This document shows positions 12,160 through 16,586 of a stretch of DNA of 64,000 nt, one piece after another (position 1 is the first letter of the stretch; each line of letters opens with the position of its first letter). The position numbers were made by a program, and so were the translations under genes. Location of the stretch: positions 626-64,625 of the forward strand of contig DATBJJ010000115.1 in NCBI GenBank assembly GCA_036556425.1, given 5' to 3'. The notes under the pieces are model-generated. The model did no database searches. It was not told the origin of the DNA and saw only the letters and a list, made by a program, of their open reading frames with translations. Origin of the DNA: Vicinamibacterales bacterium. Lineage in GTDB: Bacteria > Acidobacteriota > Vicinamibacteria > Vicinamibacterales > 2-12-FULL-66-21.

Positions 12160-13733
12160 TCGCCGCACGCGCGGCCGCGATCGCGGTGCTGGCGACCGCC
12201 GTGCTGTGCGCGTCGCCGGAAGATCAGCGGCGCGGCGCCGGATCGCCGAAGCCGGTTGGTCCCGAGCTCCCGTCCAGCGGGTTCAAGGGGGGCGACGCGC
12301 TGTCGCGCGTCTACGATCTGATTCTCGACGCGCGCTTTCAGCACGTGGAGGCCGAGCTCCGGCGCGCGTGCGGGCCGGCGCCGCTCGAGGCCTGCCACGT
12401 GCTCCAGGCCACCGCGCTTTGGTGGCGCATTCAGCTCGATCCCGACAGCCGCGCGCTGGACGACGCGTTCTTGGAAGCGGTCGAGCGCGCGATCGCGTCG
12501 GCCGAAGCGTGGACCGAGCGCGAGCCGGACAACGCCGAAGCCTGGTTCTACGTCGGCGGCGCTTACGCGGCGCGCGTACAGTGGCGCGTGCTGCGCGACG
12601 AGAAGCTCTCCGCCGCGCGCGACGGGAAGCGCATCAAGGACGCGCTCGAGCGCGCCCTTGCGCTCGATCCGGATCTCGACGACGCGTATTTCGGGATAGG
12701 CATGTATCGCTACTACGCCGACGTCGCCCCCACGGCGGCGCGGGTCCTCCGCTTCCTGCTGCTCCTTCCCGGCGGCAATCGCAAGGAAGGGCTCGCCCAG
12801 ATGCTCCGCGCGCGCGCCGAAGGCCGCCTGCTGCAGGGCGAGGCGGACTATCAGCTCCACATCATCTACCTCTGGTACGAACGGCAGACGGGCCGCGCGC
12901 TCGAGCTCCTGCGCGATCTGCATCAGCACTATCCGGGCAATCCGCTGTTCCTCGCGCAGATCGCGGAAATCGAGGACGTCTACGAGCACGACGTCACGGC
13001 GAGCCTCGAGACGTGGCGCACGCTCTTGACGCGGGCGCGCACCGACCGCGTGAACCTCACGGAGTTGGCCGAAGTGCGGGCGCGGCTGGCCATCGCTCGT
13101 CATCTCGACGCGCTCGCGGAAACCGATCAGGCGATCGACCACCTCGAGCGCATCGTCGCGCTCAAGCCGGAGGCGCCGTATGCATCGCTGGCGCAGGCGT
13201 ATCTCCGGCTCGGCGAGGCGCACGATCGCATGAACGAGCGCGACGAAGCGATGGAGGCGTACCGCCAGGCGGCGTCCAGCGTGCCGGCGCGTGACCCCTA
13301 CAATGTCCGCCGCGACGCGGCGGAGCGGCTGCGCAAGGTGCCCAACGCGAAGCACGCGGAAGCGTTCCGACTCTCCCTCGACGGCTGGAGAAAGCTGGAA
13401 CAGAAGAACGTCGCGGCGGCGGCGGCTTCGCTCGAGCGCGCGATCGCGCTCAACCCGCGCGATCCGGTCGCGCGCTATCGCTACGGGCGCGTGCTGATCG
13501 CGCGCCGCGAGCCTGAAGCCGCGCTCGTCGAGCTCGAGCTCGCGATCCGCGATGCGCGTCAGTGCCCTGCGCCGATTCTCGGGCTCGCGTACCTCGAGGC
13601 GGCGCAGCTTCACGAGCGCGCGGGGCGCAAACCGCAGGCGCTCGCCGCCTATCACGCCGCGTCGACGCTCTTCGGCGCCTCCGACGACACGCATCGCCTC
13701 GCCGCGCGCGCGATCGCGCGGCTGCAGAAGTGA
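12156..13733 (+). CDS. Secreted tetratricopeptide-repeat protein
   Basis: ATG overlaps ddl stop (ATGA); signal-peptide-like N-terminus; repeated TPR helices (EPDNAEAWFY, ALALDPDLDDAY, NPRDPVARY). Confidence 0.8.
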   Translation: MIAARAAAIAVLATAVLCASPEDQRRGAGSPKPVGPELPSSGFKGGDALSRVYDLILDARFQHVEAELRRACGPAPLEACHVLQATALWWRIQLDPDSRALDDAFLEAVERAIASAEAWTEREPDNAEAWFYVGGAYAARVQWRVLRDEKLSAARDGKRIKDALERALALDPDLDDAYFGIGMYRYYADVAPTAARVLRFLLLLPGGNRKEGLAQMLRARAEGRLLQGEADYQLHIIYLWYERQTGRALELLRDLHQHYPGNPLFLAQIAEIEDVYEHDVTASLETWRTLLTRARTDRVNLTELAEVRARLAIARHLDALAETDQAIDHLERIVALKPEAPYASLAQAYLRLGEAHDRMNERDEAMEAYRQAASSVPARDPYNVRRDAAERLRKVPNAKHAEAFRLSLDGWRKLEQKNVAAAAASLERAIALNPRDPVARYRYGRVLIARREPEAALVELELAIRDARQCPAPILGLAYLEAAQLHERAGRKPQALAAYHAASTLFGASDDTHRLAARAIARLQK

Positions 13734-13888
13734 GACGCGGATCGCGCGGATCACGCGGAGTGTGAGACGCGGATCACACGGATCACGCGGATTCACACGG
13801 ACGCCGATCGCGTTGGTGATCGGCATCGGACTCGATCGAAATCTCGATCTCGATCCGCGCGATCGATGTCATCCGCGTGATCCGCGTT
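13734..13888. repeat. Inverted nonamer repeat array (ACGCGGATC units / ATCCGCG units) with an internal duplication
   Basis: gtgagacgcggatc..cggatcacgcgga occurs twice, followed by atccgcgc..atccgcgtgatccgcgt. Confidence 0.8.
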
Positions 13889-13927
13889 TATTGCGTGCAG
13901 GTTTTTGACTTTTCGTGCACTTTATGC

Positions 13928-13955
13928 TTGACAGTAAATTTTTCTCATCCATAAT
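13928..13955 (+). promoter_or_regulatory. Sigma70-type promoter of the Lys-rich micropeptide unit
   Basis: TTGACA (13928-33), 16 nt spacer, CATAAT (13950-55) in a locally AT-rich island. Confidence 0.7.
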
Positions 13956-13999
13956 CTACATCTTGTATGAGGGTGGATCGCTCAGCCCACCTGTGGTAA
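13953..13999. promoter_or_regulatory. Putative tandem NrdR-like boxes
   Basis: aatCtAcATcTtGtat (13953-68) and agcCcAccTgTgGtaa (13984-99), starts 31 bp apart, compared with consensus acaCwAtATaTwGtgt. Confidence 0.35.
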
Positions 14000-14049
14000 G
14001 CACCGTGACCTGGTAACGACGCTGAGCTGCCAAGTTCCAAGGAGGAATA

Positions 14050-14103
14050 ATGGCGAAGAAGGCTGCGAAGGGCGGCAAGAAAAAGGGCGGAAAGAAGCGC
14101 TAG
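14050..14103 (+). CDS. 17-aa Lys/Gly-rich micropeptide MAKKAAKGGKKKGGKKR
   Basis: AAGGAGG SD before ATG, promoter upstream, terminator downstream, paralog differing only synonymously. Confidence 0.8.
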   Translation: MAKKAAKGGKKKGGKKR

Positions 14104-14123
14104 ACCCAGCCGCCTACCGGTCC

Positions 14124-14154
14124 GGGGGTGTCATGTATGACACCCCCTTTTTTT
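14124..14154 (+). terminator. Intrinsic terminator after micropeptide 1
   Basis: GGGGGTGTCAT-gt-ATGACACCCCC followed by T7. Confidence 0.88.
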
Positions 14155-14317
14155 AGCTGCATGCGCTTCCGCGATCGCTGTTCTCTTCACGCGGAAGTTT
14201 TCTGCAACGAAGCGACGGGGTGCTGACAGACGCGGGCCGGCGGCGGAGGCCGCGGCGCTGCAATGCAGCAAGAGCTCCTCGCGTTCGATCCCACGAATGA
14301 AGGGGGGGATAAGCGCA

Positions 14318-14368
14318 ATGGCGAAGAAGGCCAAGGGCGGGAAGAAGAAGGGCGGCAAGAAGCGGTAA
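14318..14368 (+). CDS. 16-aa Lys/Gly-rich micropeptide MAKKAKGGKKKGGKKR
   Basis: AAGGGGGGGA SD-like run upstream; paralog of 14050-14103; hairpin downstream. Confidence 0.75.
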   Translation: MAKKAKGGKKKGGKKR

Positions 14369-14388
14369 GCCACCTCACCCGCTAGACA

Positions 14389-14420
14389 ACGGTGCACCGT
14401 GCCTACGCACGGTGCACCGT
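14389..14420. terminator. Perfect 14-bp hairpin between convergent genes
   Basis: ACGGTGCACCGTGC-ctac-GCACGGTGCACCGT; each arm contains the palindrome ACGGTGCACCGT; no U-tract. Confidence 0.5.
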
Positions 14421-14429
14421 GAAATCCCG

Positions 14430-16586
14430 CTACTTCGGAATCCACCCCGTTCCATCCCACACGCGAATCCGCAGAATCACATCGCCCGGCTTCAAGCGAT
14501 CCAGGATCTCGATGCCGTTGACGACGTGGCCGAAGACCGTGTACTTCGCGTCGAGGTGCGGCTGCGGCGAATGCGTGATGAAGAACTGACTGCCGCCCGT
14601 ATCGCGGCCCGCGAGCGCCATGCCGACGGTGCCTCGGAGATACGGGCGATCGTTGAGCTCGTCGCGAATCGAGTATCCGGGACCGCCCTCGCCGTCGCCG
14701 CGCGGATCGCCATCCTGCACGACGAAGTTCGCGATCACGCGGTGCAGCTCCACGCCGTTGAAGAAGTTCCGCCGCACGAGGTCGACGAAATTGCGCGACG
14801 TCAGAGGCGCGTCGAGCACGGCGAGCTCGAATTCGATCGTGCCGTACGACGTTTCGATGAACACGTGCGGTGAGGTCGTTGGGCCGACGAGCTGCGGGTC
14901 GTCGTACTGCAGCGACGGGTTGGTCGGCGCGGGCGCAATCGCAGGGGACGCGCCGTCGTTCGGCGCCGCCTTCGCGAGCAGGTCTTCGGCGCGGAGCCGG
15001 ACAGCCCAATCCTTGTCCGTGAGCGCGTCGCGAAGCGTCGATTCCGCCTCGGCGCGTCCGTACGCGGCGAGCGCCGTGAGCGCGGCCGTGCGTGCGTCGA
15101 AATCCTGATCCTTCAGGCCGTTCTTGTACGCAGCGCGCAGCGCCTCGGCGCCTCCCTCGGGCTTGAGCGTGCCGAGCTCGCGCGCGGCGGTCGCCCGAAC
15201 CGCGAAGTCCGAATCGTTGAGGCGCTCGAGCAGCAGCGCGCGAAGATCGGGCACCTTCAGCTTGGCCATCGCGGAGAGGACCGCTGGAATCACGCGCTTG
15301 TCCTCGTCCTGGAGCATGGAGCGCACCCGATCGATGACGAGATCCGCGGGCAGATTGCCCAGCACCTCGGCGGCAGCGGCGCGCACCCGCCAATGGCGAT
15401 CCGGCGGCAGCCCCGCGAACACCGCGACGAAGCTGTCGGGATCGACGGCCGCGGCGGCGCGCATCGCGGCCGCGCGCATCGTCGGCCAGTCGTCGTGCAT
15501 CAGATCCTGCAAGTACGGCAGCCCCTCGGGCGCGCGAATCTCGCCCAATGCCGTCACCGCTTCCAGCCGTACGTTCGCGTGGGTGTTTGGATCGGCGATC
15601 AACTCGGTCAAAGGACCGACCGCATCGGTCGCGCCGAGCTGCGCGAGCGCCCTGATCGCGCCGACGGTAACCTCGAGGCCGGACTTCGCGGACGACGGCA
15701 GCAGCGCGACGAGCGGCTTGATCGCGCTCGGATCCTTGGCGCGTCCCAGCCCGCGCGCCGCGAACGCGCGCGTGTAGCGCGTGTTCGTGTTCAGCAGCGT
15801 CAGGAGCGCCGGCACCGCACGCGTGTCGTCGACGCGCTGCAGCGCATAGGCGATCGGCCACCACGTGCTCACCGGTTGGCTTCCGTTCAACACTGCCGCC
15901 GCGAGCGGTTCGTACGCGCTCAGGCGAACGAGCGCGAACAACCCAAGCCGGAACGCTTCCGCTTCCGGCGCGATCGGCAGCGTTTCATCGTCAGGCGCCA
16001 TCGACGCGACGGCCGAGTGCTTCGCGTACTCCGCGACCATACGGCCGATCGCCGCGGCCGATCCTTTCGCGCCGACGAGCCCGAGCGCTTCGGCCGCCCG
16101 GCCGCGCACGAGCGGCACAGTATCGGTCAAGAGCGCCGTGAGCGACGCCTCTGCCGACGGATCGCCGATCAACCCGAGCGCAAACGCGGCCATCGCTCGC
16201 ACGTCCGGATCCGTGTCGGCCAACACTGGAACCAGCAGCGCCACGCCCGCGCGATCCTTCACGCGGCCGATCGCCAGCGCCGCCCGCCGTCTGAGCCGCG
16301 GGTCCGCGTCTCGCACCAGCACGGCGAGATCGGGCGACGACGACGGCTTCGGCGGAGGCGGGAGCGCGACCGGCTTCTTCCCTTTGACGGGCGGAGGCGG
16401 CGGTGGCGGCGCCGGCAGGTCGAACTTGAGGAGGCGCTGATCCTCGAGCTGAAGGATCCACGCCATCTTCTGACGTTCGGGAATCAGATCGACGGCCGGC
16501 AGCTTCGGCGGCGGCGTCGACATGCACCCGAGCGGCGCAACGCTCGCCGCGAACGCGAGACCGAATGCCAAAACGCGTCTGTTCAC
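14430..16586 (-). CDS. Lipoprotein with HEAT-repeat solenoid and C-terminal cyclophilin-type PPIase domain
   Basis: Lipobox-like PLGC; many DxDxxVRxxAAxALG repeats; HRVIANFVVQDGDP..GMALAGRDTGGSQFFIT..HLDAKYTVFG. Confidence 0.88.
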   Translation of the reverse strand: MNRRVLAFGLAFAASVAPLGCMSTPPPKLPAVDLIPERQKMAWILQLEDQRLLKFDLPAPPPPPPPVKGKKPVALPPPPKPSSSPDLAVLVRDADPRLRRRAALAIGRVKDRAGVALLVPVLADTDPDVRAMAAFALGLIGDPSAEASLTALLTDTVPLVRGRAAEALGLVGAKGSAAAIGRMVAEYAKHSAVASMAPDDETLPIAPEAEAFRLGLFALVRLSAYEPLAAAVLNGSQPVSTWWPIAYALQRVDDTRAVPALLTLLNTNTRYTRAFAARGLGRAKDPSAIKPLVALLPSSAKSGLEVTVGAIRALAQLGATDAVGPLTELIADPNTHANVRLEAVTALGEIRAPEGLPYLQDLMHDDWPTMRAAAMRAAAAVDPDSFVAVFAGLPPDRHWRVRAAAAEVLGNLPADLVIDRVRSMLQDEDKRVIPAVLSAMAKLKVPDLRALLLERLNDSDFAVRATAARELGTLKPEGGAEALRAAYKNGLKDQDFDARTAALTALAAYGRAEAESTLRDALTDKDWAVRLRAEDLLAKAAPNDGASPAIAPAPTNPSLQYDDPQLVGPTTSPHVFIETSYGTIEFELAVLDAPLTSRNFVDLVRRNFFNGVELHRVIANFVVQDGDPRGDGEGGPGYSIRDELNDRPYLRGTVGMALAGRDTGGSQFFITHSPQPHLDAKYTVFGHVVNGIEILDRLKPGDVILRIRVWDGTGWIPK

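Follow-up and report, generated by a model that had tools for sequence, protein, structure and literature searches.

The ribosomal proteins bS22, bTHX and eL41 are Arg-rich and of near-fixed length. The H1-like proteins of bacteria include Hc2 of Chlamydia (PF07382) and BpH1 of Bordetella, the latter expressed during growth, variable in size and dispensable according to the available part of its description (PMC2848022). The repressor NrdR acts when dATP rises as DNA synthesis falls (accessible text of PMC9110341). In E. coli and P. aeruginosa paired NrdR boxes are reported only at RNR operons, as far as the available part of that study extends (bioRxiv 10.1101/2025.03.28.645925).

The locus described here is, on balance, probably an NrdR-repressed micro-operon whose 16-17-aa Lys-rich peptides would act on DNA as minimal histone-H1-tail-like polycations.

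A two-gene locus in an intergenic gap

The window (the whole stretch of DNA that was analysed, 64,000 nucleotides) contains an intergenic gap flanked by a TPR gene on the + strand, which ends at 13733, and a convergent HEAT/cyclophilin gene on the - strand (14430-16586). The features of the gap are as follows.

13928-13957, +, predicted sigma-70 promoter, from a consensus scan and conserved in orthologues
13928-13933, +, -35 element TTGACA, from a consensus scan
13950-13955 or 13952-13957, +, candidate -10 elements CATAAT or TAATCT, respectively, giving a predicted start only
13956-13965, +, NrdR-type box 1 (core CTACATCTTG), 14.7 bits, overlapping the -10 end and the predicted start
13980-14053, +, leader 1, a conserved stem (13980-13986/14021-14027) and, covering the start codon and the AAGGAGG ribosome-binding site, a predicted hairpin
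13987-13996, +, NrdR-type box 2 (core CCACCTGTGG), weak at 5.6 bits, 31 bp after box 1
14039-14045, +, AAGGAGG ribosome-binding site 1, inside the predicted leader-1 hairpin
14050-14103, +, peptide gene 1, translated as 17 aa with 8 Lys, 1 Arg and 0 acidic residues
14124-14154, +, intrinsic-terminator-like hairpin and T-run between the genes, the 10-bp stem with T-run at 14124-14147
14212-14282, +, leader 2, a long irregular RNA hairpin with a conserved apical motif, predicted from covariation, single copy in the genome
14302-14310, +, ribosome-binding site 2 (GGGGGGGAT), conserved in alignments
14318-14368, +, peptide gene 2, translated as 16 aa with 8 Lys, 1 Arg and 0 acidic residues
14389-14420, +, perfect 14-bp hairpin, z -7.5, facing the convergent HEAT/cyclophilin gene

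Translation bears out the original prediction of two micro-ORFs in this gap, each encoding a peptide rich in lysine and free of acidic residues. The two differ exactly as claimed, by one Ala codon indel and six third-position changes. Among the small ORFs of the 6.8-Mb source genome (G000; other G and L numbers denote relative genomes and loci) they are the top two in Lys richness. An in-frame ATG upstream of ORF2 shows no conservation in relatives. A type I toxin reading was tried and dropped, the peptides having no hydrophobic segment. Judged from its sequence, the locus is a micro-operon of two genes, conserved in relatives.

The stretch 13735-13895, which follows the TPR gene, is filled with short CACGCGGAT/GATCACGCG-type repeats, and smc (G000:C42) is preceded by a similar run. 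They look like REP-type intergenic repeats. Elsewhere in the genome (G000:C87:7889, - strand) a 101-aa Lys-rich protein has an N-terminal tail that resembles the micropeptides, followed by what is taken, by eye, to be a SWIB-type domain.

The peptide promoter carries paired NrdR-type boxes

A TTGACA-N16-CATAAT promoter had been predicted ahead of the first gene and is present at 13928-13955, matching the consensus at 11/12 positions where shuffles expect 0.2. CATAAT does not stand as the sole -10 element because TAATCT (13952-13957) is equally good; the latter is the hexamer that aligns across distant orthologues. The original prediction overlooked both the box pair and the structures conserved in the leaders. 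Comparison with the NrdR-box consensus marked the 10-mer at the predicted start as presumably box-like.

A box matrix was built from 42 sites, taken only from RNR promoters of other genomes and none from the source genome. Among the RNR loci, 29 given and 27 parsed, 21 have a pair of cores upstream of the RNR gene, at a distance of 31-32 bp from each other. When the paired sites of the source genome are ranked by the matrix, nrdJ comes first at 40.4 bits, the peptide promoter second at 20.3 bits and the next site at 15.4 bits. The source genome encodes nrdR (TIGR00244, 188 bits, over the cut-off) and also a class II RNR.

The peptide loci number 155. A -35/-10 anchor is found in 112, of which 68 are distinct and 62 carry a box-1 core; orthologous promoters in these box counts are not independent. 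Box 2, C.A....T.G, follows at +31 in 60/62 and at +32 in 2/62, with none at offsets 15-30 or 33-40. It keeps only C1, A3, T8 and G10; positions 4-7 vary freely and the 21-nt spacer diverges. The conserved C/G positions of box 2 correspond to positions 9/18 and 40/49, where GC pairs are conserved in the NrdR-DNA structure (accessible text of PMC9110341).

These data bear on a rival explanation in which the peptides are real and the boxes are not NrdR sites, being conserved as promoter sequence or RNA stems or as binding sites of another regulator. It is consistent with the position of box 1, which overlaps the -10/+1 region and is near-invariant, and with that of box 2, within the leader. Conservation of just four NrdR core positions at a fixed distance, with spacer and box middle diverging, argues against it, as does the fact that nrdJ, smc and the G114 gene, which is not syntenic, show the same geometry. 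Most predictions of single NrdR boxes are false, according to the available part of the E. coli and P. aeruginosa study (bioRxiv 10.1101/2025.03.28.645925), and four loci have degenerate or lost boxes despite nrdR matches; these two points speak for the rival, which is unlikely overall.

A search of 41 genomes with the pair pattern gave 67 distinct sites, namely 40 peptide promoters (in 39 genomes), 23 nrdJ-type sites and 4 others; the reversed control gave 27 scattered hits. RNR was confirmed by Pfam or position at 14 of the 23 nrdJ-type sites. Apart from one located at the end of a contig, all boxed promoters that were fetched are followed by a Lys-rich ORF. L233, at the end of G014:C76, is a second boxed-promoter copy, perhaps an assembly duplicate. 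G114 is a distant member of the phylum in which the peptide gene has other neighbours; the sole pair of that genome lies on this gene, against 6 control hits. A loose scan of a single genome is expected to give ~1.5 chance pairs at 31/32 bp.

The box-1 core is missing in six distinct anchored promoters (L053, L067, L080, L094, L107 and L139). At L107 both boxes and ORF1 are lost and the nrdJ boxes retained. In that genome, G371 (L107, L270), the RBS and terminator are also retained, and the matches to nrdR and RNR contain frameshifts, probably from assembly errors. Co-loss of boxes and nrdR is not supported, since four genomes with degenerate boxes keep nrdR and the nrdJ boxes. No pair was found in the stretch of up to 300 bp covered upstream of look-alike ORFs in records labelled Acidobacteriaceae (0/13) or Nitrospira (0/6) or of gammaproteobacterial type (0/8). 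The peptide promoter is likely to be repressed by NrdR.

Paired boxes at smc and other genes

The peptide gene shares the 31-bp arrangement with nrdJ and, in weaker form, with smc. Of 30 smc loci of the order, 17 have core pairs at 31/32 bp within 600 bp upstream, versus 8 hits over 15 other spacings. The source genome has promoter-overlapping pairs at 31/32 bp only at the peptide gene and smc, and 3 hits at other spacings; the scan used a sigma-70-like pattern that the nrdJ promoter did not fit. No cell-division gene appeared in it. The source smc site (L276:304-347; G000:C42, about 2806-2846) has weak cores 31 bp apart around the -35 element and scores 0.1 bits.

Further sites come from one genome each, in a set of three (L245:1501, L249:1501 and L252:1501) that covers G367-G369. 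Pairs lie upstream of smc in G368 and precede scpA and nrdJ in G369, both genomes belonging to other groups. A pair adjoins lexA in G367. In the source genome no paired boxes were found upstream of scpA or lexA.

Distribution of the locus

A pattern search in Acidobacteriota relatives, proposed along with the original prediction, found conserved homologues with synonymous-biased change. The strict codon pattern matches in 33/61 genomes, G000 included, and the reversed control gave 0. With a looser pattern 8/301 genomes of the phylum match, 7 of these in the source order. A scan of 11/64 parts of a species collection yielded 120 stretches, most with record titles of Vicinamibacterales or Acidobacteria; ~740 are estimated for the whole collection. 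The promoter motif is present in 49/69 other genomes of the order and in 0/81 from other orders of the class. One family within the order has the motif in 2/20 genomes only, and in three genomes of that family ddl directly adjoins the cyclophilin gene, the locus being cleanly absent.

Of 155 loci examined, 80 have the cyclophilin gene downstream in convergent orientation and 72 have the TPR gene upstream; many of the 155 have short flanks or come from other phyla. The orthologues occupy one syntenic site across most Vicinamibacterales-type genomes. Loss of either copy occurs among relatives. Several records carry a Vicinamibacterales-type promoter or neighbours that contradict their titles (L072, L086, L155, L158 and L165; Woeseiaceae, Planctomycetales, Solibacteraceae and Bifidobacteriaceae) and are probably mislabelled.

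Look-alike ORFs in other phyla stand alone, without the leader-2 hairpin, and an Acidobacteriaceae-type pattern matches in 7/41 genomes of Acidobacteriaceae. From such simple sequence, homologous and convergent look-alikes appear indistinguishable. Eight loci (L048, L054, L056, L060, L062, L067, L074 and L110) have stand-alone Lys/Ala-rich ORFs of 15-22 aa, most with a visible promoter, RBS and terminator; their labels are Acidobacteriaceae, Nitrospira, Proteobacteria, Bradyrhizobiaceae, Opitutaceae, Dadabacteria, Chitinophagales and Phycisphaeraceae. Three tandem Lys-rich micro-ORF copies occur at L059 and L109 (one Methylomirabilota-labelled record and one Acidobacteria record). L134 lacks a peptide ORF, and the one at L065 probably forms the end of a longer frame. 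Viral contigs and phage records gave no match to the peptide locus.

Selection on the peptides

Among the 17-aa orthologues the third codon position is variable in 13/18 columns of copy 1 and 14/18 columns of copy 2, the first position in 2 columns of each. Amino-acid replacements stay within Gly/Ala/Thr/Ser or within Lys/Arg. Together with the codon-pattern matches and their null reversed control, this predominance of third-position change lends good support to the original claim of purifying selection on a translated, polycationic peptide.

Orthologues are 13-30 aa long and consist almost only of K, A, G, T, P, S and R. Length changes by gain or loss of whole modules at the one syntenic site, and Gly and Ala are exchanged. 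The composition of 82 distinct peptides, a set chosen for at least 30% K, is K 51%, A 27% and G 8%, and Lys outnumbers Arg ~11:1 in the orthologues.

These properties weigh against an accessory ribosomal role or general RNA binding for the peptides, after the pattern of bS22, bTHX or eL41; a tiny ribosomal protein was one of the options in the original prediction. That option suits peptides that are tiny and very basic, have strong RBSs and are near-invariant in sequence within families. The source genome has no bS22/COX24_C match, so such a slot could be open, and Hc2 itself binds RNA (available part of PMC2848022). The option loses ground on the 13-30 aa range with its whole-module changes and Gly/Ala swaps, on the preference for Lys over Arg and on the clean absence from three complete genomes of one family. 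Moreover, the neighbours are ddl/TPR and HEAT-cyclophilin genes, not a ribosomal operon, and the NrdR-type boxes point towards DNA metabolism. A ribosomal or RNA-binding role is improbable.

The two copies can also be compared with each other. At distinct two-copy loci the peptides are identical in 39/83, always with 3-8 silent differences, where shuffled pairing gives a mean of 6 identical pairs in a control that ignores phylogeny. At L024 both copies have Ser5, encoded from different codon families; the pair is therefore not explained by gene conversion. Such tracking in amino acids would suit peptides that bind the acidic surface of one protein partner in the co-regulated machinery (NrdJ, a replication factor or the SMC complex) or else a different polyanion, for example polyphosphate, and the paired boxes common to nrdJ and smc would fit as well. 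However, old duplications or conversions give the same identity pattern, across families only the charge pattern is preserved, and smc and RNR persist in genomes free of the locus. Binding to a specific partner is, on this evidence, quite unlikely.

Leader RNAs and terminators

The original prediction called the flanks of the two ORFs unrelated. They do differ between the paralogues, yet each flank is conserved between genomes and is structured. Leader 1 shows strong sequence conservation, and a consensus fold was drawn from 20 loci. None of its pairs has two-sided change, and in the window's own sequence the z-score is +0.4; the fold is a prediction only. Leader 2 has two-sided changes in 9/25 pairs and 0/500 shuffles score as high, in a test whose structure was drawn from the same sequences. 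Its model, R1, has only this one genomic match with E<0.5. Visual inspection of the alignment led to rejection of a sigma-54 interpretation of the leader-2 motif, which is not followed by a -12 element. An Rfam scan of the locus gave nothing over gathering score.

The second ribosome-binding site is likely a wobble variant of an extended Shine-Dalgarno sequence, which would pair with the 16S end; the 16S 3' end was not found in the source assembly. The terminator predicted after ORF1 is there, a 10-bp hairpin followed by a T-run. A terminator follows copy 1 in 62/69 distinct two-copy flanks and copy 2 in 42/70. Since no second promoter is seen in the alignment ahead of copy 2, this copy likely depends on read-through. 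The perfect hairpin predicted after ORF2 was likewise found. It has no U-tail here, whereas in most relatives a GC hairpin and T-run form a conventional terminator at the same place; the hairpin here is likely a terminator or 3' protector. The C-rich bases after the stop codons are predicted to pair with the coding part rather than the RBS (about 8-11/22 bases with the coding part).

The conserved leader 1, the covarying leader-2 hairpin, the intervening terminator and the predicted pairing of the C-rich 3' flanks would allow a structured RNA as the working product, with the ORFs translated only as stabilisers or lysine-sensing leaders through which read-through at the middle terminator is set, but this is very unlikely: no same-strand gene lies downstream to be controlled, the HEAT-cyclophilin gene being convergent, the peptide is kept where the hairpin is lost (L036, L157), similar ORFs stand alone without the hairpin in other phyla, and the identity of Gly, Ala and Arg, preserved through silent changes, would be needless for a pure Lys sensor.

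A model for an H1-tail-like polycation supplied with replication

The preferred reading, an NrdR-repressed operon for H1-tail-like peptides, suggests the following mechanism. NrdR would bind the promoter as dATP builds up and release it when DNA synthesis drains dATP, so that peptide output would keep in step with replication. Once translated, the unstructured +9 peptide would lie on the DNA backbone with no sequence specificity. New DNA would be neutralised and loosely compacted, not locked in the manner of protamine, and the peptide would work beside HU/IHF and SMC. The second copy would add dosage via read-through of the middle terminator, tuned by the leader-2 hairpin.

In their composition, in the modular way their length changes and in being dispensable, the peptides resemble Hc2/BpH1-like proteins, in support of the H1-tail reading. 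This option had been raised in the original prediction as a DNA binder and gains indirect support, including that from the boxes common to nrdJ and smc, although common regulation does not prove a common substrate. DNA complexes of eight-lysine peptides are less stable than those of 16-mers (available part of PMC4991294); hence tight protamine-like condensation is unlikely. The four HU/IHF genes of the source genome were counted against the need for an H1-like peptide. Further points against the preferred reading are the weakness of box 2 in the source genome, the loss of both boxes and ORF1 at L107, the loss of the locus in one family and the boxless look-alikes elsewhere.

Comparison with known systems

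For the 20-30-aa orthologues no Pfam or NCBIfam family reaches its cut-off, the best being HC2 (PF07382). A 29-aa orthologue matches it with E 0.0085 and 16.6 bits, against a cut-off of 40 bits; eight other 20-30-aa peptides gave no HC2 hit, and the window's own peptides are below the 20-aa minimum of the scan. Profiles are insensitive on such sequences: the peptide family's own HMM missed its own genome. A 30-aa orthologue has no sequence match in PDB. In G114 (L238:1210-1557) a 115-aa frame of Lys/Ala/Val repeats scores 39.8 bits with Pfam HC2, just below the cut-off. Searches of the open-access literature found no description of these peptides and no report of NrdR box pairs at smc or at a gene of this kind; the 2005 NrdR-box survey and supplements could list such sites.

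With bS22, bTHX and eL41 the peptides share tiny size, strong basicity and a tendency to be overlooked by gene callers, and they differ in being Lys/Gly/Ala-rich, in their 13-30-aa range and in the lack of a Pfam or NCBIfam match of that kind for the 20-30-aa orthologues. Amino-acid attenuator leaders have a same-strand biosynthetic or transport gene downstream, whereas here the downstream gene is the convergent HEAT-cyclophilin gene.

The likeness to Hc2 and BpH1 is closer. Those proteins are also Lys/Ala-rich, almost acid-free, modular, variable in size and without a globular domain, but at 165-237 aa they are ~10x longer than the 16-17-aa peptides (available part of PMC2848022). Gly-Gly linkers, the tandem two-gene layout and the NrdR-type boxes set the present locus further apart. 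The peptide likely works like an H1 tail yet falls outside PF07382. If so, it adds a class of nucleoid components whose shortness hides them from gene callers and standard tryptic proteomics; the host lineage is abundant and mostly uncultured, and several other phyla apparently have them too.

As in a known NrdR regulon, two C-x8-G boxes lie 31 bp apart over the promoter, an arrangement shared with the nrdJ boxes of the lineage; box 1 adjoins or overlaps the predicted -10 element, and nrdR is encoded in the genome. The difference is that the target is not an RNR and that binding here is predicted. If the prediction is true, the paired-box NrdR regulon extends beyond ribonucleotide reductase to chromosome packaging, through the peptide and smc, a reach not seen in the available part of the E. 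coli and P. aeruginosa study (bioRxiv 10.1101/2025.03.28.645925). A wider and more tentative proposal, which may well prove too broad, is that Vicinamibacterales couple a 16-17-residue chromatin peptide to replication via NrdR, alongside ribonucleotide reductase and SMC. This would parallel, in bacteria, the supply of histones during S phase, and among the H1-tail-like genes for 13-30 aa, an unannotated class that would span several phyla, the locus would be the one with the best regulation.
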